A stretch of DNA of 58,420 bases from Chloroflexota bacterium (GTDB lineage: Bacteria > Chloroflexota > Dehalococcoidia > UBA2247 > JAUWOP01): NCBI GenBank assembly GCA_030612045.1, contig JAUWOP010000003.1, positions 1-58,420 of the forward strand. The letters run 5' to 3'. Positions within the stretch are counted from its first letter, which is position 1. Every line of letters starts with the position of its first letter. A program made the translations under genes and the position numbers. Positions 2,532 to 43,502 of the stretch are shown here, piece after piece. The notes under the pieces were generated by a model that saw only the letters and a program-made list of their open reading frames with translations, searched no databases and was not told the DNA's origin.

Positions 2532-2592
2532 ACTATTACAAGGAACTCAAATAGTGAATTAAATCTCTCTGCGTATTCTGTGGTAAAGTTAT

Positions 2593-5414: not shown

Positions 5415-5489
5415 TAGTCGAGAGAAGCAACAAATACTAACTCTCGGCTACCTAAGGGGTTTTATAACTGGCTATAATTTATTCAGGGG

Positions 5490-14080: not shown

Positions 14081-15981
14081 ATAGCAACTGGATTCCGTTT
14101 CCCGTATCGAGGTACGGGACAAGCTTCAACGGAATGGAGTGTCTTATCACTTGCCTCCGGTGGAAGTTTTACCATGATGCTAATGGCTACCCCTTGCTGG
14201 ATGTCAAATACATTCTCGTCCTTGCTGCCATCGGGGGTAACCTCTCGCTTCTTGGTGTTGCCGTGAAGGTCCAGGATATAAATCTCATCAAAGGTATCCA
14301 TCAGGGATTGCCTCATCCCTCGGAAGGTGGGATTATCCAGATAGGCGGGAGTGGTGATGAAGGCGAGTATCCCCTGCCCTGTCTGCTCAATCCGCCATTG
14401 CCCGAATCGGATAAACTTCACATAGTCATCCTGCAGCCACTTTGGGTTCTTTTCACCTAAGGGCTTGCCATCGACAATCTTGTATCGCTCAACCAGTTGC
14501 CTTGCCCAAGCACCTTTATTGGCTGAATGACCAGAATACGGTGGATTGCCCAGCACCACCATGATGGGTTTGTCTTTCTTAATCTCAGCGGCGGCATTGG
14601 CTTCCTCAGTTATCCAATTAGCAAATAGAGCCTCCGAATGTTTAATGGCCTCCTCCATGGTGTTAGTGAGATAGATCCCCAGGCGCTGGTCGCTCCTGAA
14701 CTGATAGCCGGTCTCTTTTAGAAGTAACCCCAGTTTCAAGTGTGCCATAGCATAAGGAGCCATGAGAATCTCAAAGCCAAATATGCGTGACAGGAGCTTC
14801 TCAGCGACATAGTCATTCCAGAGCCCCGTCTGCCCCTGACCGATAATAGCATCGTGAACCTCATTTATTACCATATAGAGAAAGGTAGCTGTGCCTACTG
14901 CGGGGTCCAGTATAAGAACGCTGGGGTCGGCTAATCCCTGGGGCTTGTCGAAGCGCGTCTTGAGCAGGTAATCAACGGAGCGCACGATATAAGAAACCAC
15001 CGGTTCCGGGGTATAGTAGACACCGCGCATCTCTCGCACCCTGGGGTCGTAGGCGGCAAGAAAAGTCTCGTAGAAGTGCACCACCGGGTCTTCCTTAGCA
15101 GTGCGCTTGCCAAAGTCCTTAAGGATTGCCTCCATATCAGCCTGGGCAAGCAACTGTGCCAGGTCGTCCACCAGCCAGGCAATGCGGTCGTCCAAATCGG
15201 GGCCGGCAATGTGGTTAAAGAGCCTTCTTAGAAAGGGATTGGTCTTGGGCAAGAGGTAGGCAGCGTTCTGGCGAGTGAAGCCTATTCCTGTAGGGTGATT
15301 ACAGCGGGCGGCAAAGAGTCCATAGGCAATGGTCTGGGCATACATATCAGCAAATTGCCCCACGGAGAGGTCGGGTATGAGATTATCCCTGAAGGCGACA
15401 AATTGAGCGTGGAGCGAACCACTTCCTGGCTCTGTTTCAAAGGCAGCAATTATGAGGTCACGAATCAGGTGAGCCAGGCGAGCCATGCGCTGGGCTAATT
15501 CCCTGGGTGTGCCTACAGGTTCGGCACGATGTGAGAAGAAATTATCAAAGAGCCAGGTAACTGCTTCTATGCCTGCTTTATCACGCCTTACCTTGCCATC
15601 CCGGGTCGGCGTGCCCAGGCGGGCGGAGAGACGCCGTTCACCATCCGTATACCAGCGAAACTCAAGGTAATCGGTCAGGATAAGGTTGGTGAGGGAATCT
15701 CGATAACGCTGGAGTTGCTCGGAGCGCTCAGCCTCATCCAGGCTCTTACCTATATCTTTAGCTTCAACATAGCCAATGGTAGTCGAACCATTGGTAATAA
15801 CGAAATCTGGGGCGCCGCACTCTATACGCCGCGGCTCATTTGTAGCCACTATGCCGTCGCCTAAAGATTCAAGCAGCACCTTGAGTGCAGGACGATAGGT
15901 ATGCTCGGTAGCGTTGCCTAACGCTAACTCTTTCTCGATAGTACGAATATAGGTAGGGAATGCTTTCATAGTTAGTTGCAT
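14077..15981 (-). pseudogene. N-terminal fragment of the split restriction-methylase (nuclease + N6-adenine methylase domains)
   Basis: PD-(D/E)xK-like GAPDFVI...GYVEAKDIG near the N-terminus. SAM motif I ILDPAVGTATF and motif IV VLGNPPYSG. The last about 20 codons (TLHSVEACPVPRYGKRNPVAI) are read from the inserted repeat. Confidence 0.8.
14160..14194. repeat. 35-nt direct repeat of the methylase gene segment (copy 2, in the gene)
   Basis: GTGGAAGTTTTACCATGATGCTAATGGCTACCCCT. Encodes QGVAISIMVKLPP on the minus strand. Confidence 0.8.
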
Positions 15982-25226: not shown

Positions 25227-26717
25227 TTGGAACTCTGCCAATTAACTATTCATCAGGCGCATGAATTGCTCAAGAGCAGGGAAATCTCTTCTGTAGAGCT
25301 CACCAAAGCCTCTTTGGAGCGTATCTCTCAGGTTGAGGAGAAGGTTCATGCATTTGTTTCCATTAGTTCCCCATCGATATCTCAGGCTGAGGCATCTGAT
25401 GAGATGATAAGGAAAGGTGAGATTACACTATTAACAGGGATTCCTGTTGCCATCAAGGATAATATGTGCACACAGGGAGTGCGTACTACCTGCTCCTCGC
25501 GGATGCTAGAAAGTTTTGTTCCCCCTTATAATGCTACAGTAGTGGAGAGGTTAATATCTGCAGGGATGGTTATGGTGGGTAAAACGAATATGGATGAATT
25601 TGCTATGGGGTCATCCACGGAGAATTCTGCCTTCTCCCCCACTTATAATCCGTGGGATGTGGGACGAGTTCCTGGTGGCAGCAGTGGTGGGTCAGCATCA
25701 GCAGTGGCAGTAGATGAAGTTATCTATGCCCTTGGTTCTGACACAGGGGGAAGTATTCGTCAGCCAGCAGGATTCTGCAGCGTGGTGGGATTGAAACCTA
25801 CTTACGGCAGGGTATCACGATATGGTCTAATTGCCTTTGCCAGTTCCCTTGACCAGATAGGACCATTGACAAAAGATGTGACTGACTGTGCTATCGTACT
25901 GAATGTCATCGCCGGACATGACCCCAGGGATGCAACTTCAGTACCGTATCCCGTACCGGATTATACGCAGTCGCTTCTCCATAATGCTGATACTATTCCT
26001 GATTTGAAAGGTCTGCGGATTGGAGTTCCGCGCGAGTATTTCGTTGCCGGAATCCAGTCAGGTGTAGATGAGGTGATACGAACTGCTATTGGGAAATTAG
26101 CAGAGTTAGGAGCAGAGGTAGATTGGGATGTTTCCCTACCTCATACCTCTTATGCCCTCTCTGTCTATTATATCATTGCTCCTTCGGAGGCTTCTGCTAA
26201 TCTGGCGCGCTATGATGGAGTTAAGTATGGCTTTTCATATCAGGAAGCAGGTAGTATGTGGGATGCTCTGGAGAAGACCAGACAGTTTGGGTTTGGGCCT
26301 GAGGTGAAACGGCGCATCATGCTGGGTACCTATGCGCTCTCGGCTGGGTACTACGATGCCTATTATCTCAAGGCGCAGAAGGTGCGAACCCTAATAAGAC
26401 GAGAATTTGATGAGGCTTTTAGCGGAAGTACTACAAAGAAGAGATTCGATGCACTAGTAACACCTACATCACCTACTGTGCCCTTTGAGCTAGGTGAGAA
26501 GATGGATGACCCACTGCAGATGTATCTCAGCGATGTATGCACCCTACCGATAAGCATTGCTGGTGTTCCAGCTATCTCCATTCCAGCTGGCTTTGTTAAT
26601 GGTCTACCTGTGGGGATGCAGATTATCGGTAAGCCTTTCAGTGAAGAGACCTTATTGCGTATCGCTTATGCATATGAACAGGCAACAGAGTGGCATAAGA
26701 TGAGGCCACTAATTTAA
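25227..26717 (+). CDS. gatA: Asp/Glu-tRNA amidotransferase subunit A
   Basis: Amidase signature [12 protein letters not shown]...[15 protein letters not shown] start, 496 aa. Confidence 0.9.
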
Positions 26718-28231
26718 CTGGTAGCTGTCAGTAATTTCTCTAATGCCAGGGCAATCCTTTTGAGGCATTGTTCTTTCCCCAACACTGCCATTGTCTGAAA
26801 TAATGGGGGGGCAGCAGTCTGCCCCGTGGTCGCTACCCTGAGAAGCCCGAAGAGTTCGCCTGTTTTGAGGTTCAGTTCTACCGCCAGGGGGCGAAGCAGC
26901 TCCTCTAAGGAACTTGCATCGAAGGAACTCAGTATCGAGAGCCTTTCGTGAGCGGTCTGTAATGCCGAAGTGGCTCTCTCCTTATCCATCCCCTTCTGTA
27001 ATAGTAGGGTAGTATCATACTCCAGTATCTCAGTAAAGAAAAACCTGCTTAGTTCAGGAACCTCGGCTAAGTAACGGACTCGCTCTTGAATAAGAGGTGC
27101 TATCTGGGAAACATAATCCATACCAGTGGAGGCATTATGATAAAGAGGATGTTCCATCTCATGGGGTAGACCATTCTCTAAAAAGGGCAATGCCCGTTGG
27201 GTAAACTCTTCACTACTTAGTTGCCGTATGTAGACACCGTTCATCCAGTTGAGTTTCTTTATATCAAAGACAGCAGCAGTCTTGCTGAGGCGCTCCAGAG
27301 AAAAATGCTTGATAAGGTCTTCCCTGCTGATGATGGTAGTCTTATCATCCAGTGACCATCCCAAAAGAGCAAGGAAATTGATAATAGCTTCAGGCAGATA
27401 TCCCTGCTGGCGATATTCTATGAGAGAGGTAGCTCCATACCGTTTACTGAGCTTGGTATGGTCTGGTCCCATAATCATAGTGAGGTGGGCGAATAATGGT
27501 GGCTCATATCCCAGAGATTGATACATGAGGATATGGCGGGGTGTGCTGGACAGCCATTCATCTGCCCGCAGTACATGGGAGATTTGCATCAGGTGGTCAT
27601 CTACTACATTAGCAAGGTGATAGGTAGGGAAACCATCTGACTTCAGGATAATGAAATCATCCAGGGTATTGTTGCTGAATGTTACATTACCCCGAATGAG
27701 GTCACGGAATGTGGTCTTACCTGGAGGAATCTTGAAGCGGACTACAGGAATGATTCCTTGCTCCTCAAAATGGCTTCGTTCAGATAGAGTCAGGTCACGG
27801 CAGTGACGGTCATATCCCGTAGGCTGTTTACGCTGCATCTGCCGTGTGCGTAGCTCATCCAAACGCTCTGGTGAGCAGTAACATGGATAGGCATATCCTT
27901 GTTCAATCATTTGCTTAGCAGCAGACTGATACAAATTCAGCCGCTGTGACTGAAAATAGGGGCCAAAGTCTCCACCTACCTCAGGACCTTCATCCCAGTC
28001 TAGTCCAAGCCAGCGCAGGCTTTCTAAGATTGTATCTACTGCCCCCTCTACCTTCCGAGTCATGTCGGTATCCTCAATGCGCAGAATGAAGCTCCCCTTC
28101 GTCATAATACTTTCACTACTATGGCGAGCAAAAAGCCAGTTGAATAGAGCTGTTCTGATATTACCTATATGAGGATAACCAGTAGGGCTGGGGGCATATC
28201 GGACTCTAACTTGTGTCATTGGCATATTCAT
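26714..28231 (-). CDS. gltX: glutamyl-tRNA synthetase
   Basis: [16 protein letters not shown] (HIGH) and KLSKR (KMSKS). 505 aa. 4-nt convergent overlap with gatA. Confidence 0.9.
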
Positions 28232-28601: not shown

Positions 28602-28630
28602 TTGACAAAGGTTTGCATTTATGCTAGGAT
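28602..28630 (+). promoter_or_regulatory. sigma-70-type promoter candidate for the riboswitch-led cluster
   Basis: TTGACA (28602..28607), 17-nt spacer, TAGGAT (28625..28630). Predicted TSS near 28637. Confidence 0.4.
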
Positions 28631-28650
28631 GTAGCGAAATTGAGTATAAT

Positions 28651-28738
28651 GTGAAAAAGGTAAACCTGTCCGAAAGGCAGGGGCACAAAGCTACAAATCT
28701 AAAGTTCCACAGAGGGATATGATGGTTGGGCTACCACC
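28651..28738 (+). promoter_or_regulatory. candidate c-di-GMP-I (GEMM-I)-like riboswitch aptamer
   Basis: GUGAAAAAGGUAAACC-UG(U)CC-GAAA-GGCAGG-GGCACAAAGCUAC...GGUUGGGCUACC parallels, as I recall it, the Vc2 aptamer GGCAAACC-AUUC-GAAA-GAGUGG-GACGCAAAGCCUCC...GGGGUUACC. It has a GNRA-capped hairpin with one bulged U and a second long imperfect stem AGCUACAAAUC/GAUAUGAUGGUU. It deviates at two usually conserved positions (GGC to GGU, ACGCA to GCACA). Confidence 0.45.
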
Positions 28739-28750
28739 TTAGATAAGGGA

Positions 28751-28797
28751 CTGTTCTGCGGCAGGGTAGTGAAGCCCAGCCAAAGAGCAGTTTTTTT
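28751..28797 (+). terminator. intrinsic terminator (expression platform candidate) upstream of the 649-aa gene
   Basis: CTGTTCT(GC)GGCAGGG-tagtgaag-CCCAGCC(AA)AGAGCAG followed by T7 (28791..28797). Lies 160 nt upstream of the ATG at 28957. Confidence 0.55.
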
Positions 28798-28956
28798 GTC
28801 TAAGAAGGGAGATTACTTTGGTGCTGTATGCCTCGGCAAAACTAAACAGCTTCTGTACGCCCATTCTACTTCATCTCGTGTAATATCACCATTATGCAAC
28901 CTTTTGGTGTCTTGGGATGGGACATACCAATTCAGAATGAAAATAAGGAGGGAAAA

Positions 28957-30906
28957 ATGGATAATAAAACTAAGAAAGCCTATCTGAGACCAGAGGATGT
29001 AGAACCGGCAAGAGCAAAAAGGGTATTGTCTTTCTTGAATACCGTTGCAGCAGATGAAATAGCGGATGCCATCGAGTTCCCAGGTGAGAGAGATGTGGGG
29101 ATTAAGGTTGCCCAGAATATTTTGGCTCGGCGGGTGCAATTAGGCGGATTCAAGAATCTAAGACAGGTTGCCGCTGTACCACAAGTCGGTTTAGAAAGGT
29201 TCACTGAGATTGTAAATGCCTTGGCGATAAGAAAGAAAATGGAGACCAGCTATACCATTGAGGGACAGATAAAAGTCATAGGTAAGATTGATTTTAGAAA
29301 GGAGAAGCTGGCAGTTCATGCCTTTGTGGGTGGTGTAGAGATGGCTTGTGCCGATGTGAATACAAAAGGGAGCTACAAATTGGCTTTTTACTATAAGGAC
29401 ACTCCATCGACTACCGAGCTTCGTGTGTTGCCAGCTAAGTTTTCCCACCGCTGTTCACAGACACTAACCCTAAGCAAAACCATCAGCCCTAGCCGCTATG
29501 TCTTAAAAGAGCGAACATATCGCGCCATCTATGACTTGCTCATCCCCCCTGACTACCTCACCCTCTGGGGAACAGTCACCACGAAATATCGCATGCATGG
29601 CACTGTCTGGGCTACCACCTTCAGTGGTGGTATACCCATATCCATAGAGCCACTACCCGCAGCCAAGATCGAGTTCCACGAGGTTGACGCCCTTATTTTT
29701 TGGCTGCTGGGTACTGAACCTGAACTAACCGAGGGCTATCTAGGATATGCCTATACTGCTCTCGATGGTAGCTATGATTTTGAGTTTGATTTCAGTTACA
29801 AGACAAGACCACCATGGATTTGGCTATGGCTGTTTACTGATAGGGTACCTGACATTCGAGCTCGAATCTCCCAGTTTATAGATGGCTTATGGCAGCAGGT
29901 TTACGAGGGTCCGGTGGATTGGAACATCGTGGAGGATTTTCACCGTGATTACTTCATCCCTGTGGAGGATACCATACCCATACCTGATGAGGGAGTTAAA
30001 CCTGATGAGGGATTTCGTTTTGTCAGTGTTGGACTCCTCCCTGTTGACGAAACCCGTATCCAACAAGGCTACGCCACGGCACAACCTGGCGATCCAGGAC
30101 GGATAGTGGGCATATCCCACCAACCCTTCTGCGGAACACTACGTATCTTTGGCCTCTTTGCTGAGGCTCCACCTGTGGCCAGCTATAAGGCCCAGATTGT
30201 AGATGCTGATGAGGATGGACCCACCAGTAGTAATTGGCAGGATATCACTGACCCCCTCCACAATCGCAAATGGAATAATGTGGAAAACTGCTGGGAGCAT
30301 ATGGTTCTTGGCCCTGACCCAGCAACAGGACGCTATCAGAACATTGATACCCAGGCCGAGGCTGACTGGCATGAGCACGCTCTCAAGATTACATGGAACA
30401 GCACTAATGAAGCTAATGGCTATTATGCTTTGCGTATTATAGGCTACGATGCGGATAATGCAGAGGTAGGCACATTTGAGATGCCCGTAGTGCGGGTGGA
30501 TAATGATGTGCCTGAAGCGAGCATCGAGGTTATGGGTTCAGTGACAGAGTGTGGCGCTCTGCAGTTGGGAGCAGATCGGAAAATTCAGTTTAAGGTTACA
30601 GCCCATGACCCGGAGGGACATGTTTTGAGGTACTGGCTAAGTGGCACACGAGGCAAAGGAGCTGGCTCAGCTGGCAATACTGTTCAGGAGTGGCGTCCTG
30701 ACCCACCTGGAGATGTATGGACCGGCGTGAAGAATCATATTGAGGATTTCACAGTGGCTGCTCTTACCGGGGACATAATAGGTTGTCCCTCAGTGGCCTA
30801 CAATTTCGAGCTTCATGTCTGGGGGTTGGCAACGGACTGCTATAATGTAACCCCCGGTTTGCAACGAATCAAAAGAGAGACCAATCTCATCGTATCAGAG
30901 CCGTAG
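28957..30906 (+). CDS. HhH-domain protein with large beta-rich body (649 aa), function unknown
   Basis: AAGGAGGG RBS 5 nt before the ATG at 28957 (the track ORF starts at 28894). ComEA-like helix-hairpin-helix LNTVAADEIADAIEFPG...VGIKVAQNILARR...LRQVAAVPQVGLERFTEIV (about 29026..29223). Then transthyretin/Ig-like-looking beta segments. No signal peptide. Confidence 0.7.
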   Translation: MDNKTKKAYLRPEDVEPARAKRVLSFLNTVAADEIADAIEFPGERDVGIKVAQNILARRVQLGGFKNLRQVAAVPQVGLERFTEIVNALAIRKKMETSYTIEGQIKVIGKIDFRKEKLAVHAFVGGVEMACADVNTKGSYKLAFYYKDTPSTTELRVLPAKFSHRCSQTLTLSKTISPSRYVLKERTYRAIYDLLIPPDYLTLWGTVTTKYRMHGTVWATTFSGGIPISIEPLPAAKIEFHEVDALIFWLLGTEPELTEGYLGYAYTALDGSYDFEFDFSYKTRPPWIWLWLFTDRVPDIRARISQFIDGLWQQVYEGPVDWNIVEDFHRDYFIPVEDTIPIPDEGVKPDEGFRFVSVGLLPVDETRIQQGYATAQPGDPGRIVGISHQPFCGTLRIFGLFAEAPPVASYKAQIVDADEDGPTSSNWQDITDPLHNRKWNNVENCWEHMVLGPDPATGRYQNIDTQAEADWHEHALKITWNSTNEANGYYALRIIGYDADNAEVGTFEMPVVRVDNDVPEASIEVMGSVTECGALQLGADRKIQFKVTAHDPEGHVLRYWLSGTRGKGAGSAGNTVQEWRPDPPGDVWTGVKNHIEDFTVAALTGDIIGCPSVAYNFELHVWGLATDCYNVTPGLQRIKRETNLIVSEP

Positions 30907-31056
30907 AGGAAGCTATTTAGTCTTATCACTGTAGTAATGGAGTTGCCAGATGAGGACATAGGATGGGTGAGAATATATTTAATGACTAAATTACAGAGAG
31001 TAGGAAAAGGAGGTGTTACCTAATCACATCAAATCTTCTCTAAGGAAGTGCAGGTT

Positions 31057-31416
31057 ATGTCTATTGATTGGGAAAATATTCGCTGCCTTGTGCTGAATGC
31101 AGTGCCCCCCGAGGAACTGCGAAGTTCCATTGTCTATTACGATGAACAGGTGCTGCCTGCAAATATGGAAATCGAGATTGATAAGCAGAAATTCATTATG
31201 CCCTGGGCAGGGGTCGTCGCTTTTGTTGACCTCGAGCCAAAGGTGAATTGGGGGCATGCTTGTCGCTATTTGTTTGTTAACATTGAAACTGGTGAAATCC
31301 GTGCCATGAAGGCTCGTTTCCCCCCATTTCTTCGTGGATATTCGGATACTCTGCGAGTAATCAAGCGCTATGGTGCATCTCCCCTTCACGACAGGGACTT
31401 CGATATCTACCGATGA
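31057..31416 (+). CDS. small protein with NWGHxCRY domain (paralog of the protease N-terminus)
   Basis: ATG 8 nt after AAGGAAG (the track ORF starts at GTG 31048). AGVVAFVDLEPKVNWGHACRYLFVNIETGEIRAMKARFPPFL aligns with residues 55-96 of ORF 31499..33763. Confidence 0.6.
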   Translation: MSIDWENIRCLVLNAVPPEELRSSIVYYDEQVLPANMEIEIDKQKFIMPWAGVVAFVDLEPKVNWGHACRYLFVNIETGEIRAMKARFPPFLRGYSDTLRVIKRYGASPLHDRDFDIYR

Positions 31417-31498
31417 CTAGTTCCCAAACTTTAGGATAATATTTGCTATTTAAGGTCTAGCAAAAGGATGCTGAAAATAACATTAAAGGAGGCTATTC

Positions 31499-33763
31499 AT
31501 GAAAATCAAAACTGACGTACTCGCTAAGATCAAAGAGCAATCGCTGAAGCAATTGAACGTCAATGAAGCTAAGAGAAGGAACATATACATCGATACTGAA
31601 CAACTGTCATCTGATGAAGTACTGGTCGCTGGTCACCAAAGAATTGAGTTGTCGAGGGATACAGCTTTGGTCTTTGAAGACCTTGCTCCACAATTCAATT
31701 GGGGTCACCCTTGCCGCTATATACTTCATGATTCTAATACTGGGGACCTCTATGACTCAGTGGATGCCGAATTTCCGCCAGATTTGAAGGAGCCGCGTGA
31801 ATCTCTGCAGGTATTTCACAAACCCGTGAAGCAAATCAACTGGATGAAAGAAAAAATCAAGAAGCCTGCTGTTACTGGCAGGCTTGCCAACGCATTGACC
31901 AACGCATTGGGCACAAGATATGCTGTGTTGTTCTCAGGAGCATCGAATAATCGCCATGTCAATGACATAGAATTTCTTTATCGGACGCTTGTGGATATCT
32001 ACGGATTCAACCCTGCCAATATATATATCCTCAATCACGATGGAACCGTAAATTATTGGGGAGTCCCGCACCCGGTTGTAAGCTGGCCAGGTGATAATAC
32101 AGCCTACCGTATGACAGTAAATGGACAGGGGACCAAGGCTGCTTTTGAGAACATTCTAGATGACCTCAGAACACGCCTGACACTCGACGATTTCCTCTTC
32201 ATTCATATGAATAATCATGGTGGACATGATGGCACACAGTCATATCTGTGCACTTACTCCGGCTCTGATTATCTGGCTTCGGATTTTGCTGCCAAGTTGG
32301 CTACTTTACCCAAATTCGCTACCTTGATGGTGATGCTGGAGCAGTGCCATTCTGGAGGCTTTATTAGTCCAATTATCAATAATACTCCTGCGCTTACCAC
32401 GCATGTGGCTGCAGCATGCCGAGAGGACCGTGGTTCCAAGGGGGGTGCTGACTTTGATCCATTCGCCCTTGACTGGATCGCTGCGGTGAATGGGGCATAT
32501 GCTGATGGGGCAGGTCTTCATCTCGTTGTTGATAGTAATAGCGATGGGCGAATCTCGGCAAGGGAAGCCTTTGACTATGCTAATGCTGACAAACATCCCT
32601 ACGACACGCCTGTCAGCGATGACAAGCCTGATGACTATGGAAATTACATTTTCCTGGGGCTACCTGCGCATGACCTTTATATTCGAGATAATCTGGATGA
32701 TACAGGTCAAGAGCCTCTACCAGCAGGTGGTATGTCAGCTAGTCCTGATGTCATTGTCTACAATCAGCAATTACTGGATCCCCAGGGTACGCTCGGAACA
32801 GCGGATGCTATGGCGCAAGCAGGACTGGGTGAACTTGTAGAGAAGGGGCAAGATAACTTCATCTATCTGCGCGTTCAGAATCGGGGCACGAGTGCTTGTG
32901 CTGGAACAGCAACCCTCTACTGGTGCCCAGTTTCCACCTTCCCCACGCCGGGTAGCTGGAATTTGATCAACTCTATACCAATGTCGATACCGTCTGTATC
33001 ACCCGGAGAGATTAAGATAGTTGGTCCCGTGGTCTGGCCACAGGAGCAAATTCCTGAAACTGGCCATTATTGCTTTGTTGCCCTGCTCAACAGTGGTGAT
33101 GACCCTGCTCCAGACCCATCAACTATCTCCTCCATTGATGATTTCTACAACTTCATTCGATTTAACAACAACGCCACCTGGAAAAATTTTAATGTTGTGG
33201 ACATGTTTGCGGGTACGGTAAACCAATTTGAGTTCCATATCCAAGGCTGGCCCCGAGTTGCCTACACATCAGACCTAGTAATTGATATCCGGGAGTTGCC
33301 GGCTCCGGTTGAAGTACACCTGCGCATTCTGAAGCGTTTGACCGAAGGTTCCACGCTTGCTGGATTAGAACTTGAGGAGGAATCGAGCTTATACCGACGT
33401 TATCTTGTTACTACCTCAGATAAAGCAACTGCTCAGAATATGCCGCTCAAACCGAGTGATGATTCTCAGGCAACCCTTGAATTCACCCTACCTGATGAGG
33501 CACCAGATGGTGCGTACTATGTCTCTGTTTCACAGCGCATTAGTGGTAAGGAGGTAGGGCGCGTTACACAAATGATTGTGGTTGGTAATCACCCGTTTAT
33601 TGCCAATCATAACTCTAGTAGTCGCGAATTGCATCGAAATGGCTGCATTTGGGCTGACAGGATAGCTCGGCATAATAAGGTTGCATATACCCAACTCGAA
33701 AGAGCAATAAAGCATGGCTATGATGGTTGCGCTTATTGCATGCCGGAGTTACATACGCGCTGA
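31499..33763 (+). CDS. legumain-like (peptidase C13, caspase fold) multidomain protein
   Basis: AAAGGAGG RBS. N-terminal NWGHPCRY domain. C13-like core RYAVLFSGASNNRHVNDIEFLYRTL...NIYIL, His in FIHMNNHGGHDG (32216), Cys in MVMLEQCHSGGF (32345). EF-hand loop DSNSDGRISARE (32531..32566). DLYIRDNLDDTGQEP...SPDVIV beta-sandwich region. C-terminal Ada-type LHRNGC...GYDGCAYCMPE. Confidence 0.7.
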   Translation: MKIKTDVLAKIKEQSLKQLNVNEAKRRNIYIDTEQLSSDEVLVAGHQRIELSRDTALVFEDLAPQFNWGHPCRYILHDSNTGDLYDSVDAEFPPDLKEPRESLQVFHKPVKQINWMKEKIKKPAVTGRLANALTNALGTRYAVLFSGASNNRHVNDIEFLYRTLVDIYGFNPANIYILNHDGTVNYWGVPHPVVSWPGDNTAYRMTVNGQGTKAAFENILDDLRTRLTLDDFLFIHMNNHGGHDGTQSYLCTYSGSDYLASDFAAKLATLPKFATLMVMLEQCHSGGFISPIINNTPALTTHVAAACREDRGSKGGADFDPFALDWIAAVNGAYADGAGLHLVVDSNSDGRISAREAFDYANADKHPYDTPVSDDKPDDYGNYIFLGLPAHDLYIRDNLDDTGQEPLPAGGMSASPDVIVYNQQLLDPQGTLGTADAMAQAGLGELVEKGQDNFIYLRVQNRGTSACAGTATLYWCPVSTFPTPGSWNLINSIPMSIPSVSPGEIKIVGPVVWPQEQIPETGHYCFVALLNSGDDPAPDPSTISSIDDFYNFIRFNNNATWKNFNVVDMFAGTVNQFEFHIQGWPRVAYTSDLVIDIRELPAPVEVHLRILKRLTEGSTLAGLELEEESSLYRRYLVTTSDKATAQNMPLKPSDDSQATLEFTLPDEAPDGAYYVSVSQRISGKEVGRVTQMIVVGNHPFIANHNSSSRELHRNGCIWADRIARHNKVAYTQLERAIKHGYDGCAYCMPELHTR

Positions 33764-34127
33764 CTTGGTCTGTTCGAAGCAAGACGGGAGGCAGTCCTAT
33801 ACCTAGAGCAGATTCTCAAGTACTAACAGTCAAGCATTCACTGAAAAGTGGTAACTATGGGTGAAACCTCAAATGGAGATGGGAATTATTGTTCATGTGT
33901 CGACCATTATTCACCCACTTTATTTACTGCTTGGCTCACTGGTGAAGCATGATAAGTATATAGGGTTACCTGCCGGCTCAATATTGCTCTGGAGGGATTT
34001 CTACAGATAGCGGCAACCTTGCTCTATTGTTTGTAGGCTTTTGTCATTCATGATTAATCGCATGTCCCAATCATAAACGAGCTGACTTAGTCCTTGAGGT
34101 TCATATTATGTTGGAAGAGACTTCAAG

Positions 34128-34156
34128 TTGATATATTTCATACCTTATGTTATAAT
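34128..34156 (+). promoter_or_regulatory. sigma-70-type promoter candidate for the AAA+/VWA pair
   Basis: TTGATA (34128..34133), 17-nt spacer, TATAAT (34151..34156), within a 455-bp AT-rich spacer. ATG at 34219. Confidence 0.45.
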
Positions 34157-34218
34157 ATCTTTGTAAATAGGTATTGGTTTCTCTTATTTATATATTTATA
34201 GTTGGGGGTAATAATTAG

Positions 34219-35064
34219 ATGTTGAAGCATAGTGAGCAACTAGAACTTCCTATAGCAGACCCTTATTTCTTTTTGCCGCGGATGGTTATCGATCACCTGG
34301 AAAGGATAGAAAAATTATCATCCAGACACCCTGTTAATGTATTGGTTACAGGAAAGCAGGGGTGTGGAAAGTCAACTCTGGTGCGACAGTTTGCAGCACA
34401 CTACAATCGCCCTATGAGTACCTTCCAGGTGGGACTCCTCTCTGAGCCGGGGCAGCTCTTCGGTGATGAGAGGCTCAGGAATGGCGAGACCTTTTATCAG
34501 GAGTTCTTGTTTCCTAAAGCTATTACTACACCCAAGTGTGTGATTCACCTTGAGGAAATAAACCGCCCTGAACATCCCAAAGCCCTCAACGAGCTTTATT
34601 CTGTCCTCTCTGAGGATAGGTCTATCTGGATAGATGAACTGGGATTAGTTAAGGTTGCCGAGGGAGTGGTTTTCTTTGCTAGCCTTAATGAGGGGGCAGA
34701 GTTTACCGGCTTAGACCCCCTAGATGCAGCACTCCAAGATAGATTCTATACAATTCAGATGGAGTACCTACCGTGGGAAGCCGAGAAGCAGGTTTTGATG
34801 CTGAAGGCTGGCGTTAGTGAGGAACAGGCAGATAATATTCTTCGAGTCGTCACAGCACTAAGGGAGAATCCTCAGCAGTCTGTAGCTGTATCCACCAGGC
34901 ATAGCTTAATGATTGCAGAATTGATGGCAGTAGGGGCAGGACTTAAAGAGTCTACTATCTTCAGCTTGCAGGTCAGCAAGGATGCACTGGAATCTGTTCT
35001 GGTATCTTTGCATTTTGAGTTAGGAGATTTTTCGGGAAGCAGTGATACATATGAGCTATTCTGA
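34219..35064 (+). CDS. MoxR/CobS-class AAA+ ATPase
   Basis: Walker A VTGKQGCGKST, Walker B-like VIHLEEINR (EE instead of DE), sensor-1 FFASLNEG, Arg finger AALQDRF. 281 aa, single AAA_5-type module. Confidence 0.85.
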   Translation: MLKHSEQLELPIADPYFFLPRMVIDHLERIEKLSSRHPVNVLVTGKQGCGKSTLVRQFAAHYNRPMSTFQVGLLSEPGQLFGDERLRNGETFYQEFLFPKAITTPKCVIHLEEINRPEHPKALNELYSVLSEDRSIWIDELGLVKVAEGVVFFASLNEGAEFTGLDPLDAALQDRFYTIQMEYLPWEAEKQVLMLKAGVSEEQADNILRVVTALRENPQQSVAVSTRHSLMIAELMAVGAGLKESTIFSLQVSKDALESVLVSLHFELGDFSGSSDTYELF

Positions 35065-36895
35065 TTATTGGAGAGTAAACAAGTCTTCTCTGGATTATAT
35101 AGAACTGGCTAATGTTATTCGGTCAGTGCGTAAGGTAATAGGGTGTATGAGAATAAATGCAGATGTAGTGTGGAGGGGAATGCCTACTGATACAGGCGTT
35201 ATGGTTGAGCTTCCATCCTATTTGGCGCAGGGGACATACCCCATCCCTGGTAAGACAATGGATGTAATCACAGGTTTTGCTATTCATAATGCGATGCACA
35301 TTAAGGAACATAGTCGGCAGGTGCGCAGGAATGTATCTTTACTGTTTCCTAAAATGGAGGATAAGAGGCTGTTCCATCTACTGGTAGATACGGGAGAAGA
35401 TATACATGTGGATGGAATTACTGCTATGGCAGGAATTACGGGGAAATATGTACAGCAGGCACGGGAGTGGTGGAATGAGAGAGCAGGGCTGGACTTTATA
35501 GGTCCCCCTCACCCTGAGAGATTACTTGGCTTGTGGGCACATATGATATTAGACATTATTTTTTCTACCATGACAGGAGACACTTTGACTTGTTTGGAAA
35601 AAGTGGTTAGCGTAAGTGCCTCGAAAAAGGAAAGCTCTGAGGGGATTGATATTGAGACGCTGATAGAAGCTCTCAGTAATAGTGGTGCCACAAAACTGTC
35701 TCTATATGGTGAGGTTTTAAGCATGTCAGAAGCTTACCTTGAGCCCCTTGGGCTTCTCCTATCTAAAACAGAGGAGATTGTAAATGGCGACTTTGCAAGT
35801 AGGATTCTCTGCTACACAGAGTTATGGAATAGGCTAGGAGCTACTTTTAGTGATTGGTTGGTTGATCTTGATGAAGCCAAATCATCTGAGGAATTGTTAA
35901 GTACACACCCTTATATCTTTGGAGGTGGGGGTCCTGGTGGTGAGTTACCAACTGATCTGGCAAATGCAGTGGAGGAAGCTCTTGCTAAAGAAGCAGAGGA
36001 CATCACTATCCAGATTGAAGCAGCTTTGAGCTCTCTGAAAGGAGGAAATGAGGCAAAATACTTGCTTTATCCAGCAGTGTGGGAGGTCTCCTGTGAGCCT
36101 AGTGAGGTACACCCAGACCAAGCACTTGTCCATAAACTTAGAAACATCCTGCGTGCTCAGAAAGAGGCTGCTACCAGAATGAATCGGGGATTGGTGAGCG
36201 GTAAGTTGGATGCCCAGAAGCTATACAGGGCATATACTACAGGGAGAACTTTCAAGAGGAAAGAATACTTCCCTATGTTAAATCAATGGACTATTGTAAT
36301 GCTTCTTGATGCTTCCGGCTCAATGGAGGGAAAGTGGGGTATGGTAGGAAGATGTTGCTCTGCTTTGGCAGAAGCCCTAGGAGAGTATAATACTGTGAGG
36401 GTATATGCCTACAGCCAGACATATAGAGAGACGATAAATATTTGCATACTTACGGATCTACTTCATGATGGTGGTCACCTGTGTACCATTACCCCTGGGG
36501 GTTGCACACCTACAGGGGAGGCTCTTATTGCTACTGCACTGAAGATGCCTCAGGGAAATAATAGAAGATTGATTCTGCATCTTACCGATGGATTATGGAA
36601 TTCAGGGGTAGATGTATGGTACGGTCTGGAATTTTGTGCTAAAAAGCAGATAGAGGTGATAACACTCGGATATGGTAGTTCCAGCAGGAGAGCATTTGAG
36701 CTACAATACGGAAATAATTTTGAGATGATAGACTCTTTGGAGGAGTTGCCACATGTAGTGGAGTCGCTGCTTCGTCGAAAGTTGTTAGGTTTCCCGAACT
36801 TGATGGATTTCCAACGTGTTATGGAACAAATTGGTGTGGCAGAGAGAGCGATTGAACTACCAGGTTTTACTATTGTTGGTGGTGCACAAGTATAA
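35042..36895 (+). CDS. VWA-domain partner of the AAA+ ATPase (CobT/NorD/CbbO-like architecture)
   Basis: 617 aa. C-terminal VWA with complete MIDAS (LLDASGSM, TPTGEAL, HLTDG). About 400-aa helical N-region with no motif recognised. Start (GTG 35042 or ATG 35051) overlaps the ATPase stop. Confidence 0.8.
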   Translation: MIHMSYSDYWRVNKSSLDYIELANVIRSVRKVIGCMRINADVVWRGMPTDTGVMVELPSYLAQGTYPIPGKTMDVITGFAIHNAMHIKEHSRQVRRNVSLLFPKMEDKRLFHLLVDTGEDIHVDGITAMAGITGKYVQQAREWWNERAGLDFIGPPHPERLLGLWAHMILDIIFSTMTGDTLTCLEKVVSVSASKKESSEGIDIETLIEALSNSGATKLSLYGEVLSMSEAYLEPLGLLLSKTEEIVNGDFASRILCYTELWNRLGATFSDWLVDLDEAKSSEELLSTHPYIFGGGGPGGELPTDLANAVEEALAKEAEDITIQIEAALSSLKGGNEAKYLLYPAVWEVSCEPSEVHPDQALVHKLRNILRAQKEAATRMNRGLVSGKLDAQKLYRAYTTGRTFKRKEYFPMLNQWTIVMLLDASGSMEGKWGMVGRCCSALAEALGEYNTVRVYAYSQTYRETINICILTDLLHDGGHLCTITPGGCTPTGEALIATALKMPQGNNRRLILHLTDGLWNSGVDVWYGLEFCAKKQIEVITLGYGSSSRRAFELQYGNNFEMIDSLEELPHVVESLLRRKLLGFPNLMDFQRVMEQIGVAERAIELPGFTIVGGAQV

Positions 36896-37015
36896 TGGTG
36901 AGCATGTATCCAGGTGGTATATCATTGAACTACCAGATTTTGTTATTATTGGTAGTATGGGAGCTGTGATACAGAACACGGAGAAAACCCATACCTCTCT
37001 CTGGAAACTTGAAAC

Positions 37016-38344
37016 TCAGGATTGAGGGATTAATTTAGAGCCCATGTAGGGGCGTAAGGCATCGGGAATTACTATACTTCCATCTGATTGCTGATAGTTC
37101 TCCAGAAGAGCAATAATAAGCCGCGGTAATGCTACTCCTGAGCCATTGATAGTATGAGCAAATTGTGATTTAGCTCCAGCTTTGGGGCGATAGCGAATAT
37201 TAGCCCTCTTTGCCTGAAAGTCGCCGCAGTTGCTGCAGGAGCTTACCTCTAACCATTCTCTACAACCTGGTGCCCATATCTCAATATCAAAGGTCTTTTG
37301 TGAGGCAAAACCAAGTTCTGCAGTGCACAGTTGCACTACTCTATAGGGAATCTCCAGTTTCTGGCATACTTCCTCGGCATCCTTCACTAGCCTCTCTAGC
37401 TCTTCATCTGAGGTATCAGGCTCAACAACTTTATACAACTCCACCTTATCAAACTGATGCCCTCTCTTGATTCCCCGTGTGTCTCTGCCAGCAGCCATCT
37501 TCTCACGGCGGAAGCAGGCAGTATAGGCTACATAGTGGAGTGGTAGAAGTCCTGGCTCAAATATCTCTTCCCGATGAAGGTTGGTCAGTGGCACCTCAGC
37601 AGTAGGTATAAGCCAGAAGTCTTCCTCAGCATCATGGTAGAGATTGTCGGCAAATTTAGGGAGATTACCTGAGCCTACCATACACTCACCCTTGACCATG
37701 TAAGGCGGATATATCTCGGTATAGCCATGCTCTCTGGTATGAAGGTCAAGCATAAAGGAAATCAGGGCTCGCTGTAATAATGCTCCCATTCCCTTGAGTA
37801 CATAGAATCGGGTGCCAGAGAGTTTCACTCCTCTCTGAAAGTCGATTATACCCAGCGTTTCCCCTAATTCCCAGTGAGGACGAGGCGGGAAACTAAACTG
37901 TCGTGGCTCGCCCCAAGAGCGTACTAACTTATTGTCATCGTTGCTCCTGCCATAGGGGACATCAGGAGAGGGGATATTGGGCAACTCTAAAAGGAGATTC
38001 TGCAACCTCTCCCACAGTGTATCAGCCTCAGCTCTCAGAAAGTTAATCTGCTTTTTCACATTACTTCTGCTGTCTTGGCGAAGATACTCAATCTCTAGGT
38101 GCCTTGCAATGCCCTCATCCTCCGCAGAGCTTATACTAGAAAAGTCATCTCCCGATGCGAGGTGAGCACCAATCTTCTTGCTTGTCCTTTTGTGCTCCGC
38201 TTGCAATGCTTCTACCTGCTGGAGTAACCGACGATGCTGCTCATCCAGAGAAAGAATCTCTTCTAAAGGAGCACTTTCATGGCGTTTCTCCAACGCTTCC
38301 AGGACTAATTCTGGATTCTGACGAATAAATTGCAGACTAAGCAT
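37016..38344 (-). CDS. serS: seryl-tRNA synthetase
   Basis: N-terminal coiled coil and class II core (TAEVPLTN, FRRE, GSGVALPRLIIALLENYQ). 442 aa. Confidence 0.9.
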   Translation of the reverse strand: MLSLQFIRQNPELVLEALEKRHESAPLEEILSLDEQHRRLLQQVEALQAEHKRTSKKIGAHLASGDDFSSISSAEDEGIARHLEIEYLRQDSRSNVKKQINFLRAEADTLWERLQNLLLELPNIPSPDVPYGRSNDDNKLVRSWGEPRQFSFPPRPHWELGETLGIIDFQRGVKLSGTRFYVLKGMGALLQRALISFMLDLHTREHGYTEIYPPYMVKGECMVGSGNLPKFADNLYHDAEEDFWLIPTAEVPLTNLHREEIFEPGLLPLHYVAYTACFRREKMAAGRDTRGIKRGHQFDKVELYKVVEPDTSDEELERLVKDAEEVCQKLEIPYRVVQLCTAELGFASQKTFDIEIWAPGCREWLEVSSCSNCGDFQAKRANIRYRPKAGAKSQFAHTINGSGVALPRLIIALLENYQQSDGSIVIPDALRPYMGSKLIPQS

Positions 38345-42480: not shown

Positions 42481-43218
42481 TTAACCGCAAGTTCTGCTCG
42501 TGACGCGAGCATCTTCAGAAATTTCTGGTCTAAGTGTAGAGCCCAATTCCAATTCTGGTAAATCCTTAAGTTCCCACCACTCTATTAGATCAATTCTATA
42601 TTTATCACTTTTAGCGAAATCTCGTGCTTGACTGGTAAAGCCTCGTTCAGCTATTAGAATTCCCTTGGTCGCTCTTCTAGAAGTGACCACACCTAAAAGT
42701 TCCCGGGCTACTCCTACTCCTACAGTTTGCCCCCACTTCTTACATTGTATTATATATAGACTCCTATATAACACATCCTCCGAGCACGCTGTCAAATCTA
42801 TACCCCCATCCGGTCCCCTCCCAGTCTCAGTAACCTTATAGCCTAAATTTCCTAGTAATTTTCCCAATTTGTCTTTCACTCGGTCCTCAAAATCATGCCA
42901 ATCATCGCAACCTAAAAATTCCCGACCTTTTCGTGTTATCTCCCACTTATCACTTTCAAGGAGTCCTTGAGCACTATGAGCAATTAACTCGTTTTCACAA
43001 AGCGTTTCACGTCTTTTCTGAATTCGCTGTTCCCATTCCCCTACTTTTTCCTTCTTGCTCAGTTTTGGTCTTGAAAGAGGTTCAGCCACCAACTCATATA
43101 GCTTCTCTATTGTCACCCCATGATGCCCCTCCGATGCAATCCCATGAAGTAAATGGGTTTTTTCAAACCTCTTAATCTTTGGGGGTGACTTTCTCACTTT
43201 TTCTAATTTACCATTCAT
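42481..43218 (-). CDS. Mrr-like restriction endonuclease domain protein
   Basis: DFEDRVKDKL...GRGPDGGIDLTA...YIIQCKKW...GVGVARELLGV...GILIAERGFTSQA is the Mrr_cat pattern (D...D/E-x-K as (Q)CK). The N-terminal half is winged-helix-like. Probable ATG at 43218. Confidence 0.75.
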   Translation of the reverse strand: MNGKLEKVRKSPPKIKRFEKTHLLHGIASEGHHGVTIEKLYELVAEPLSRPKLSKKEKVGEWEQRIQKRRETLCENELIAHSAQGLLESDKWEITRKGREFLGCDDWHDFEDRVKDKLGKLLGNLGYKVTETGRGPDGGIDLTACSEDVLYRSLYIIQCKKWGQTVGVGVARELLGVVTSRRATKGILIAERGFTSQARDFAKSDKYRIDLIEWWELKDLPELELGSTLRPEISEDARVTSRTCG

Positions 43219-43219
43219 C

Positions 43220-43502
43220 TTTTGGGCACTCACAACAGTTCATCCTATTTCTCAGCAAGGGGAGTCCATAAAGTACTCCCCTGCAATGACTATCATTAGA
43301 GCCGTTTCCCTCACATCCCCATAACAGGCAGTTGGTCTACAGAGGCACAATAAAGGAATCAATGCCTGCCCACTCGAGGAAAGATATTGAGGTAGCATCG
43401 CCTAGCTGGCTGCCTATTGCACTGAACTTCAGGTTAGGGTTAGCCTTATGTGCCTCGGTGATAGCATCAGCAATAAGCACACCTACCCCCTCTACATCGA
43501 GT
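43220..43502. repeat. direct repeat copy B (authentic ppdK 3' end and its downstream 117 nt)
   Basis: See copy A at 40907..41190. Confidence 0.85.

Follow-up and report, generated by a model that had tools for sequence, protein, structure and literature searches.

Five plus-strand genes preceded by a riboswitch, all confirmed by ORF calling and an Rfam search, lie between gltX (26714-28231) and serS (37016-38344), both on the minus strand, in the window, the 58,420-nt stretch of Chloroflexota DNA analysed here. A first-pass annotation had read the five genes as one AAA+/VWA-coupled protease system of the conflict type, and the locus thus raises the question of whether its genes belong together. 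The explanation we favour, tentatively and with slightly less than even confidence in it as a whole, is that the 8.3-kb stretch is made up of two unrelated units, 28602-33763 and 34128-36895. The first would be a c-di-GMP-repressed operon for a legumain zymogen that lacks a signal peptide and has a prodomain-like partner acting in trans, and the second an AAA+/VWA pair. The G+C content of the cluster is not anomalous, and a repeat search found no repeats bounding it.

The c-di-GMP riboswitch

A promoter-like site (TTGACA-17-TAGGAT, TG-extended, 28602..28630, plus strand; a consensus match only, 10/12) ends 19 nt 5' of a class I c-di-GMP riboswitch aptamer (28649..28738, plus strand). The aptamer matches model positions 1-87 of 87 of RF01051 (c-di-GMP-I) with 64 bits (E=3e-10; gathering score 35), which supports the nucleotide regulation proposed in the first-pass annotation. 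The expression platform (28741..28800, plus strand) folds as an intrinsic terminator, a long hairpin rich in G+C with U7 after it (z = -3.8 and -4.3). The 3' inner arm of the terminator, AGCCCAGCC (28773-28781), is able to pair with the 3' strand of aptamer P2, GGUUGGGCU (28724-28732), and this pairing would serve as an antiterminator. In foldings of partial transcripts, the antiterminator was the minimum free energy (MFE) structure of the transcript ending at 28783, and the terminator formed in the full-length transcript or when the aptamer was forced. Without ligand the full-length MFE structure is still the terminator (-49.4 versus -41.5 kcal/mol), so the case for OFF logic is a kinetic one. 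The riboswitch is predicted to be an OFF switch: c-di-GMP would lock the aptamer, the terminator would form, and a three-gene operon (28602-33763), co-transcribed after the riboswitch, would be silenced. When c-di-GMP is low, the 3' strand released from the aptamer would make the antiterminator, allowing production of the protease, the mini-protein and HhH649.

PPEP-1/ZmpI of C. difficile resembles this arrangement, in that a c-di-GMP-I aptamer and an OFF platform of terminator type (the OFF logic being predicted here) precede a protease gene. PPEP-1 is made at low c-di-GMP under its c-di-GMP-I riboswitch (PMC11477304), and an OFF platform in an arrangement of this type would therefore have the protease made at low c-di-GMP. 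However, PPEP-1 belongs to the M34 metalloproteases, is secreted and has adhesins as its known substrates, whereas the window enzyme is a signal-less C13 peptidase, and the first gene after the window riboswitch is that for HhH649. No other locus, not even L001 with its 79% identity, has a riboswitch ahead of the protease module, and most HhH649 homologs lack one, so c-di-GMP control is lineage-specific. In a second lineage (L058) a c-di-GMP-I-GGC aptamer lies 128 nt 5' of a 45%-identical HhH649 homolog.

The protease, its small partner and HhH649

Judged by its sequence, the 754-aa product of the protease gene (31499..33763, plus strand) is a legumain (C13) homolog without a signal peptide and with an intact catalytic site (His-Gly/Glu-x-Cys). 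Peptidase_C13 matches at 34.3 bits (cut-off 22.8), and Foldseek aligns the AF2 model (pLDDT 89.5) with human legumain (4awb/4n6o, TM 0.68-0.71). The protein comprises an N-domain (1-~110), a flexible linker with a conserved N131, a catalytic domain (~138-385), two beta-sandwich domains (~390-695) and an H/C3 zinc-ribbon-like tail (700-754). The catalytic domain holds R152-H153, H240-G241 and E281-Q282-C283; among 80 homologs G241 and E281/Q282 are invariant and H240 and C283 nearly so, and the earlier call of a C13/legumain fold built on His240 and Cys283 is borne out. The Arg-His/Glu residues of an asparagine-specific S1 pocket are present, the Arg-His aligning with that of A. thaliana VPE-gamma, and the enzyme may accordingly cut at Asn. 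An EF-hand-like loop (345-356, D345-x-N-x-D-G-x-I-S-x-x-E356), also noted in the first pass, is conserved and suggests Ca2+ as a co-activator. The tail had been called Ada-type, but Ada_Zn_binding reaches only 13 of the 23 bits that its cut-off requires, leaving a conserved H712/C716/C744/C747 pattern.

The enzyme thus shares its catalytic fold, motifs and S1 pocket with legumain/VPE/PAL peptidases (MEROPS C13, clan CD). It differs from legumain, whose prodomain is the C-terminal LSAM, in that its accessory domain is N-terminal, in being a prokaryotic protein, in the added loop, beta-sandwich domains and H/C3 tail, and in being encoded beside a free paralog of its own N-domain. N131 is kept in 21/23 sequences and lies in a low-pLDDT linker; the protease may be made as a zymogen whose N-domain is a prodomain, freed by self-cleavage at this residue.

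The free paralog is the 119-aa product of the mini-protein gene (31057..31416, plus strand), for which public gene calls take the ATG; a GTG at 31048 would give 122 aa. It carries the motif FVDLxPxxNWGHxC...FPP. The paralogy to the protease N-terminus proposed earlier was recovered by tblastn (E about 1e-8 to 1e-11), and D61, P64, N67, W68 and H70 are invariant in minis and C13 N-domains, a domain type for which our Pfam and PDB searches gave no relative. The same C-terminal module is found in S8 subtilase relatives, which have a different N-domain without detectable homology to the C13 type. In 10/12 of their loci this N-domain is likewise duplicated as an adjacent free mini, and 7/17 members of the S8-type N-domain/mini match Pfam Pro-kuma_activ (best E=2.8e-5). 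By analogy with the S8 subfamily, and from its position, the C13-type mini/N-domain may have a prodomain role, and the mini-protein could restrain the enzyme in the cytoplasm by acting on it in trans, as an inhibitor or folding partner that resembles a prodomain. Propeptide-like inhibitors and chaperones (subtilase I9, the pro-kumamolisin activation domain) offer the parallel of a free homolog of a protease's own N-terminal (pro)domain, and the duplicated S8 domain matches Pro-kuma_activ itself, although the C13-type domain belongs to another fold family without detectable relatives and its inhibition or chaperoning is putative.

A neighbourhood comparison covered about 70 related loci. The mini gene adjoins the protease in 20/20 long-form C13 genome loci and in a metagenome locus (L045). 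Short-form proteases were found at three loci representing two distinct contexts (L071/L072 and L073); the mini is present in both, with overlapping stop and start codons. The mini and protease are a conserved, widespread module.

HhH649 (28957..30906, plus strand, 649 aa) begins with a helical (HhH)2 module of ~90 aa and continues as ~550 aa of consecutive beta-sandwich domains, the organisation described in the first pass. With HHH_3 the complete sequence scores 23 bits and the N-terminus by itself 27.9 bits, the cut-off being 27. Neither a catalytic domain nor, by sequence, a PDB match was detected; with the AF2 model (pLDDT 91.5) Foldseek returned only multi-beta-sandwich proteins (complement C3/C5, alpha2-macroglobulin) at TM about 0.13. 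HhH649 lies directly 5' of the protease module in four lineages, namely in the window, L045 (66/35/55% identity), L016 and L055, where the protease is of S8 type; the HhH module is also fused to S8 proteases. The family is mostly solitary, which counts against a protease partnership. HhH649 may be a putative DNA-binding head on a string of beta-sandwiches that partners such proteases facultatively; its most likely role is that of a scaffold, adaptor or substrate through which proteolysis would be placed on DNA. One homolog (L039) adjoins an NlpC/P60 cell-wall hydrolase gene controlled by a c-di-AMP riboswitch, with a hairpin and T-run between the two genes.

Location and role of the proposed operon

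The earlier statement that the five proteins lack export signals and TM helices agrees with our hydrophobicity check, in which 0/5 showed an N-terminal hydrophobic segment or TM-like stretch, and a cytoplasmic location is proposed for the protease. Against this reading count the usually secreted peptidase types that carry the C-terminal beta-sandwich module (M4 with FTP/PepSY) and the EF-hand-like loop, such Ca2+ loops being more typical of extracellular bacterial proteins. The operon could instead work extracellularly, HhH649 binding biofilm-matrix DNA through its ComEA-like head and a Ca2+-dependent protease remodelling matrix or surface as c-di-GMP falls (dispersal), with non-classical export possibly addressed by the 90-aa HhH module. 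This we consider unlikely. The regulatory parallel with PPEP-1, the Ca2+ loop, the Ig/MG-like beta-sandwich arrays that resemble surface proteins, and the C-terminal module on M4, M14 and M36 peptidases and a multicopper oxidase speak for it, as do an HhH module 50-70% identical across unrelated cargo-like enzymes (subtilases, a glyoxal-oxidase-like protein) and the HhH649 homolog beside the NlpC/P60 hydrolase. However, signal peptides and TM segments are lacking in 80/80 C13 and 88/89 HhH649 homologs, an N-terminal hydrophobic stretch occurs in only 6/55 of the wider module-bearing proteins, secretion-system genes were not found nearby, and the hairpin and T-run in L039 split the hydrolase from the HhH649 homolog.

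Slightly less probable still is that mini and protease form a self-contained, horizontally mobile conflict module (abortive-infection or toxin/antitoxin-like, protease plus inhibitor) to which riboswitch and HhH649 are local add-ons. The module is patchily distributed at 46-60% identity over Chloroflexota, Bacteroidota, Acidobacteriota, Desulfobacterota, Methanothrix and Heimdallarchaeota, its flanks are completely variable (113 neighbouring proteins in 112 Pfam families, none recurring more than three times), and its enzyme-plus-small-partner layout, translationally coupled in the short forms, has a paired-domain pattern recalling effector-associated domains of conflict systems (PMC7159879). 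Yet PADLOC defence models gave no match to the cluster, in line with the first-pass view that it corresponds to no named system; defence genes are not enriched among the 113 neighbours, a sensor NTPase is absent, the pair sits in a housekeeping backbone in the window, and a housekeeping second messenger as the regulator suggests a physiological rather than an immune role.

Very improbable is a mini-protein that is substrate or precursor, cut or ligated at Asn67 as with plant peptide asparaginyl ligases: that residue is invariant, C13 enzymes include transpeptidases and the Foldseek/PDB matches include VyPAL2 and butelase-type ligases, but the mini, a paralog of the enzyme's N-domain, is a conserved and folded domain, lacks a hypervariable core, and has its counterpart in S8 proteases of the same layout, whose duplicated domain is a prodomain of the pro-kumamolisin type.

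The AAA+/VWA pair and the five-gene question

Between the protease gene and the pair lies an AT-rich spacer of 455 bp (33764..34218) with no convincing ORF and no Rfam family. Of the promoter-like sites in the region, the best (TTGATA-17-TATAAT, 34128-34156) lies in this spacer, and a separate transcription unit probably begins here. The ATPase gene (34219..35064, plus strand, 281 aa) encodes an AAA_5 protein (66 bits) with Walker A GKQGCGKST and a CbbQ_C-like lid (CbbQ_C 20.1 bits, below the cut-off of 20.6). Of its earlier assignment as MoxR/CobS-class the MoxR part stands; CobS was rejected (TIGR01650 12 bits, cut-off 558) in favour of a CbbQ/NorQ/GvpN-like ATPase. VWA617 (35042..36895, plus strand, 617 aa) has an unannotated N-terminal region of ~400 aa and a C-terminal VWA domain just under its cut-off (21.6 versus 23.8 bits). 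Its MIDAS is complete, as had been noted (D-A-S-G-S, T-P-T-G, T-D-G), and DxSxS...T...D is kept in 14/14 full-length homologs. The two genes overlap by 23 nt, and VWA617 is translationally coupled to the ATPase as a BssF/CbbO/NorD-like partner.

Unit 2 would be a MoxR-type chaperone pair in its own right, AAA+ with VWA-MIDAS, of the BssE/BssF (CbbQ/CbbO, NorQ/NorD) kind, found beside unit 1 in this genome only. Relatives of the pair adjoin glycyl-radical-enzyme genes in benzylsuccinate-synthase-like clusters (BssE/BssF-like). The window ATPase is 63-65% identical to AAA+ genes beside VWA617 homologs in L066 and L068, and has 63% identity with the ATPase of a BssC/BssA-like/BssB cluster; bssE and bssF encode AAA+ and vWA proteins of uncertain function (PMC7285207). 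In contrast to these systems, genes for a glycyl-radical enzyme, Rubisco or NOR are missing from the 58-kb window, and with 15 clusters the VWA617 family is very small.

The shared orientation of the genes, closely packed between gltX and serS, and an arrangement intact in three independent assemblies of the same organism, would suit a single NTP-dependent conflict or stress system in which MoxR-type ATPase and VWA license a caspase-fold protease effector. The coupling of MoxR-vWA pairs to peptidase effectors has precedent (PMC7159879), and the window matches the ternary conflict systems (Kaur, Burroughs, Iyer and Aravind, 2020) in having a MoxR-class ATPase beside a vWA protein with a clan-CD peptidase nearby. 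Their third components, VMAP, iSTAND, FtsH or beta-propeller (PMC7159879), are however all absent, the weak bpMoxR likeness of the ATPase (23.7 bits) stays below the cut-off of 27, and C13/legumain is not mentioned among the effectors described for them (PMC7159879). The co-occurrence check proposed with the first-pass annotation splits the cluster. The pair was found at 0/36 genome loci of the protease family, at none of about 26 HhH649-family loci and at none of the three short-form loci, and 0/5 loci of VWA617 relatives hold the protease or HhH649. Since the riboswitch-fronted three genes and the AAA+/VWA pair form separate units, the locus is not one five-gene system: that reading is largely refuted by the neighbourhood data and, with the gap and its promoter-like site, the missing PADLOC match and the glycyl-radical context of the relatives, is now barely credible. 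The pair, whose best VWA homolog is 45% identical and which has no close relative, may still co-function with unit 1 in this one genome.

Gene order and the c-di-GMP-I riboswitch

Five plus-strand ORFs lie between the minus-strand genes gltX (26714-28231) and serS (37016-38344), at the positions given in the first-pass annotation. The first three encode a 649-aa protein (HhH649; 28957-30906), a mini-protein (31057-31416; 119 aa from the ATG of the public gene calls, or 122 aa in the longest ORF, from a GTG at 31048) and a 754-aa legumain-like protease, here called C13 (31499-33763). An AT-rich spacer of 455 bp separates them from the genes for an AAA+ ATPase (34219-35064; 281 aa) and a 617-aa von Willebrand-type partner, VWA617 (35042-36895), which overlap by 23 nt. 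Elsewhere in the window the genes form a housekeeping backbone, with ClpC, RadA, PPDK, IlvD, IlvB and trigger factor among them. The G+C content of the cluster is not unusual, and a search for repeats that would bound it as an inserted island found none.

Upstream of the HhH649 gene and on the same strand, a class I c-di-GMP aptamer (Rfam RF01051) occupies 28649-28738, matching the model over its full length (positions 1-87 of 87) at 64 bits, where the gathering score is 35 (E=3e-10); the earlier proposal that the cluster is nucleotide-regulated is thereby supported. A promoter-like consensus match, TTGACA-17-TAGGAT, is located 19 nt upstream of the aptamer, and a terminator hairpin with U7 (28741-28800) follows directly 3' of it; relative to shuffled sequences its stability gives z = -3.8 and -4.3. 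In aptamer helix P2 the 3' strand, GGUUGGGCU (28724-28732), complements the inner 3' arm of the terminator, AGCCCAGCC (28773-28781). In predicted folds the antiterminator formed through this P2 strand and the terminator are mutually exclusive pairings, and the aptamer is thus coupled to an expression platform of the kind expected for c-di-GMP-I. The antiterminator is the minimum-energy fold of the transcript ending at 28783, while the terminator forms when the aptamer pairs are enforced and also in the full-length transcript. From these folds we expect c-di-GMP to cause termination, which would make the element a transcriptional OFF switch; the argument is a kinetic one, since the terminator is the thermodynamic optimum of the full-length transcript regardless. 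The base preceding (C/U)AAACC is a G, as in c-di-GMP-specific members, a hint that the aptamer may prefer c-di-GMP to 3'3'-cGAMP. In C. difficile, class I c-di-GMP riboswitches work as OFF switches, and PPEP-1, a protease, is under the control of one (PMC11477304). In about 650 kb from related loci Rfam detected no riboswitch near other C13 or S8 modules, and a loose regex scan of 924 kb returned no further aptamer cores.

The legumain-like protease and its small paralog

The C13/legumain-like His-Cys core proposed for the 754-aa protein holds at the level of profile, fold and residues. Peptidase_C13 (Pfam) scores 34.3 bits, above the cut-off of 22.8, and the closest PDB structures to an AlphaFold model made from 80 homologs (mean pLDDT 89.5) are human and plant legumains (4n6o/4awb; Foldseek, TM 0.68-0.71 normalised to target). 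When aligned by profile with Arabidopsis VPE-gamma, R152-H153 correspond to the S1-pocket Arg-His, H240-G241 to the catalytic His-Gly (NHGG) and E281-x-C283 to Glu-Ala-Cys, all invariant or nearly so among the 80 homologs. On these grounds the protein belongs to the legumain family (peptidase C13). Conservation extends to a canonical EF-hand-like loop (D345...E356), a pair of beta-sandwich domains (~390-695) and an H712/C716/C744/C747 pattern in the tail. This pattern is all that is conserved of the tail formerly termed Ada-type; Ada_Zn_binding reaches 13.1 bits against a cut-off of 23 (E=0.1). The family comprises 415 clusters and extends, at 46-60% identity, through Chloroflexota, Bacteroidota, Actinomycetes, Acidobacteriota, Nitrospirae, Desulfobacterota, Geobacter, Methanothrix and Heimdallarchaeota. 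We know of no function for prokaryotic legumain homologs.

None of the 20 long-form genome loci lacks a mini gene beside the protease gene: 19 have it directly upstream, and L016 has it on the opposite side; the same adjacency is found in a metagenome locus, L045. Short-form proteases of about 457 aa are without the C-terminal module; here the mini gene comes immediately downstream of the protease gene, and the stop and start codons overlap. D61, P64, N67, W68 and H70 are invariant in minis and protease N-domains alike, in agreement with the suggestion that the mini core is paralogous to the C13 N-terminus. Profile searches detected no relatives of the C13-type mini/N-domain in Pfam or among PDB sequences, and the Pro-kumamolisin activation domain does not match that of the window. 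The linker between N-domain and catalytic domain is modelled with low confidence (pLDDT 59-74) and contains Asn131, which 21 of 23 sequences share and which is a plausible candidate for a self-cleavage site if the enzyme is Asn-specific. At L045, where an HhH649-mini-C13 trio is present, a Peptidase_C25 gene (5215-6972, minus strand; gingipain-like, also clan CD) is convergent with the C13 gene.

Besides mini and protease, no neighbour is conserved at protease loci: 113 neighbouring proteins carried 112 Pfam families, none of them occurring more than three times. That mini and protease on their own constitute a mobile conflict module is a less likely reading; a PADLOC search of the 113 neighbours found no enrichment of defence genes.

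Subtilase relatives, the HhH649 family and a proposed mechanism

At twelve more loci the encoded proteins, about 900 aa long, keep the C-terminal beta-sandwich/zinc-tail module and have Peptidase_S8 in place of C13. The beta-sandwich module (C13 residues 385-694; 32651-33580) carries the motif R-D-x3-D-x-G-x-x-P...S-P-D-I-I-V, and no Pfam model scores above threshold on it. Clusters at 50% identity that contain the C-terminal module alone number at least 1598; its fusion partner is mostly S8, and it also occurs on peptidases of the M4, M14 and M36 families and on a multicopper oxidase. An N-terminal hydrophobic segment was seen in only 6 of 55 sampled module-bearing proteins and in none of the 80 C13 homologs. 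A less likely alternative is a role in the extracellular matrix or in dispersal, which would call for non-classical export.

The S8-type N-domain is duplicated as a small adjoining gene at 10 of the 12 loci and has no detectable homology to the C13-type N-domain/mini (hhalign probability 0.2%). Pro-kuma_activ, the Pfam model of a true protease prodomain, matches 7 of 17 S8-type N-domains/minis (best E=2.8e-5); PDB sequences, searched with a profile of this N-domain, contained no meaningful match. It is mainly because of this S8 parallel that we read the N-domain of the window's protease as a putative prodomain and the mini as one that would act in trans, as a prodomain-like inhibitor or folding partner. 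A much less likely alternative is that the mini is a substrate of the protease. That protease and free N-domain are so strictly paired points to a general means by which signal-less proteases could be kept latent, and the pairing recurs independently in subtilase relatives.

In the structural model of HhH649 (pLDDT 91.5) some 90 residues form a helical (HhH)2 head, with a series of beta-sandwich domains after it, and HHH_3 scores 27.9 bits on residues 1-95 (cut-off 27). The helix-hairpin-helix N-terminus and beta-rich remainder described in the first-pass annotation are supported, and a DNA-binding, ComEA-type assignment is tentative (TIGR00426, 18.4 bits against 53.1). Because Foldseek returned only generic multi-sandwich proteins (complement C3/C5, alpha2-macroglobulin; TM ~0.13), we do not claim HhH649 as an enzyme or a member of the alpha2-macroglobulins; searches by Foldseek and by sequence profile revealed neither an enzyme fold nor a relative among PDB sequences. 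The family consists of about 100 clusters with a 550-aa core, the HhH head being limited to Chloroflexota-type members.

HhH649 homologs are mostly solitary. Directly upstream of a module protease, that is a peptidase bearing the C-terminal module, the gene occurs in four lineages (the window, L045, L016 and L055); the L045 trio is 66/35/55% identical to the three genes of the window, and the protease at L055 is of the S8 type. In the Rfam run on about 650 kb, two loci had riboswitches near HhH649 homologs. At L058 an HhH-less homolog, 45% identical to HhH649, is preceded at a distance of 128 nt by a c-di-GMP-I-GGC variant aptamer (5759-5867; 60.3 bits, gathering score 59). At L039 (7007-9668; Pseudobacteroides cellulosolvens) a c-di-AMP (ydaO) riboswitch, an NlpC/P60 cell-wall hydrolase, a hairpin with T-run and an HhH649 homolog follow one another in this order, and the intervening hairpin and T-run weaken the link between riboswitch and homolog. 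HhH649 is thus a facultative partner of module proteases, and an aptamer of c-di-GMP class precedes its gene in two lineages; its role would be that of a scaffold, adaptor or substrate. Genes for a TMEM260-like glycosyltransferase and a DUF5916/CBM9 protein lie upstream at L058.

The HhH head is also fused, at 50-70% identity, to S8 proteases and other enzymes. To judge from its sequence distribution it seems to behave like a portable address or tether module. The 90-aa head (28957-29241 in the window) was seen on otherwise unrelated signal-peptide-less proteins (P0221-P0234; L034 8300-11368), including S8 subtilases and a glyoxal-oxidase-like protein; it is internal in P0228 and C-terminal on an S8 protein of a Bathyarchaeota MAG.

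From the observed architecture, its conservation and the regulatory RNA we infer the functions in a possible mechanism. At low c-di-GMP the three-gene operon would be transcribed. The legumain-like enzyme would fold as a zymogen with the N-domain covering or stabilising the catalytic domain, and the mini-protein, as a second, free copy of the N-domain, would buffer its activity. Self-cleavage at N131, possibly with the help of Ca2+ at the EF-hand-like loop, would activate the enzyme, and HhH649 might localise or present targets on DNA. A legumain homolog behind a well-understood second-messenger switch offers a direct experimental handle, as low c-di-GMP should turn it on. A broader reading, which taken as a whole we consider improbable, is that proteases which, in anaerobic bacteria and archaea, stay in the cytoplasm or leave it by non-classical export follow a design rule so far unrecognised, the outcome being a proteolytic switch gated by a second messenger and tethered to DNA. 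One C-terminal beta-sandwich/zinc-ribbon module would be common to enzymes whose catalytic classes are unrelated (C13 legumain, S8 subtilase), each enzyme would have its N-terminal prodomain encoded beside it a second time as a free copy, and a DNA-binding (HhH)2 module would be recruited either on a beta-sandwich partner or by direct fusion. If true, such a switch might serve dispersal, programmed lysis or conflict, and it would have no characterised counterpart.

The AAA+/VWA pair and the surrounding window

The first-pass annotation had joined all five genes into a single AAA+/VWA-driven protease system. Despite their common strand this is the reading least compatible with the data: none of the protease and HhH649 loci examined contains the pair. 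In the 455-bp spacer no ORF or Rfam family was found, and its promoter-like site (TTGATA-17-TATAAT, 11/12 match) is the best in the region. The AAA+/VWA pair is separate from the protease unit and is a bystander of BssE/BssF type; recognising it as such prevents a wrong annotation as a five-gene defence system.

The ATPase, earlier called MoxR/CobS-class, is of the MoxR class (CbbQ/NorQ/BssE type), with AAA_5 at 66 bits including Walker A, a marginal CbbQ-type lid (CbbQ_C, 20.1 bits, cut-off 20.6) and a VWA-MIDAS partner. A CobS/CobT cobaltochelatase was rejected, as the CobS equivalog TIGR01650 reaches 12.1 bits against 558.55 and no CobN is nearby. The complete MIDAS attributed to VWA617 (DxSxS...T...D) is conserved in 14/14 full-length homologs, and the VWA profile itself falls just below its cut-off (21.6 bits, 23.8). 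The VWA617 family is tiny (15 clusters), and its relatives at L066 and L068/L069 adjoin an AAA_5 gene 63-65% identical to that of the window. The pair lies beside a small glycyl-radical protein at L066 and inside a BssC/PFL-like glycyl-radical/BssB cluster at L068/L069. In bss operons, bssE is an AAA+ gene and bssF a von Willebrand gene, with uncertain function (PMC7285207). A serpin gene (1760-3034, minus strand) is close to the VWA617 homolog at L066, and another serpin is among the protease-locus neighbours.

MoxR-vWA ternary conflict systems (Kaur et al., PMC7159879) have a bpMoxR-type ATPase and, as third component, a VMAP, iSTAND, FtsH or beta-propeller protein. Membership was rejected: the ATPase of the window scores 23.7 against a bpMoxR cut-off of 27, its cluster has none of these third components, and the pair is unlinked to the protease elsewhere. 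PADLOC 2.0 gave only generic P-loop matches to named anti-phage systems for the five proteins (E>=6e-4), and the statement that no named system is recognisable remains in place.

The c-di-GMP-I riboswitch, the C13 peptidase and the MoxR/VWA pair are known kinds. Three features appear to be undescribed: that a prokaryotic legumain is obligately paired with a free paralog of its N-domain, that S8 relatives show a parallel design, and that there is a link to the HhH649 family and to c-di-GMP-class riboswitches. Literature searches on legumains of bacteria, proteases under c-di-GMP riboswitches and MoxR-vWA conflict systems turned up no account of any of the three.

Several minor features of the window were noted. 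An imperfect 33-nt direct repeat (36851-36883 and 36924-36956; 85% identity, 73 nt apart) covers the final VWA codons and the spacer ahead of serS, and could be the remnant of a duplication at the gene boundary. The pyruvate phosphate dikinase ORF (43337-47260, minus strand) encodes 1307 aa, about 400 aa above the usual length, with PEP-utilizers_C matches in two separate stretches, and may carry an intein or other insertion. Amid the housekeeping genes are three others, all on the minus strand, which encode a Type ISP C-terminal specificity domain (11815-13107), an N6-methylase/MmeI-like protein (14077-15981) and an Mrr-type restriction endonuclease (42481-43233).
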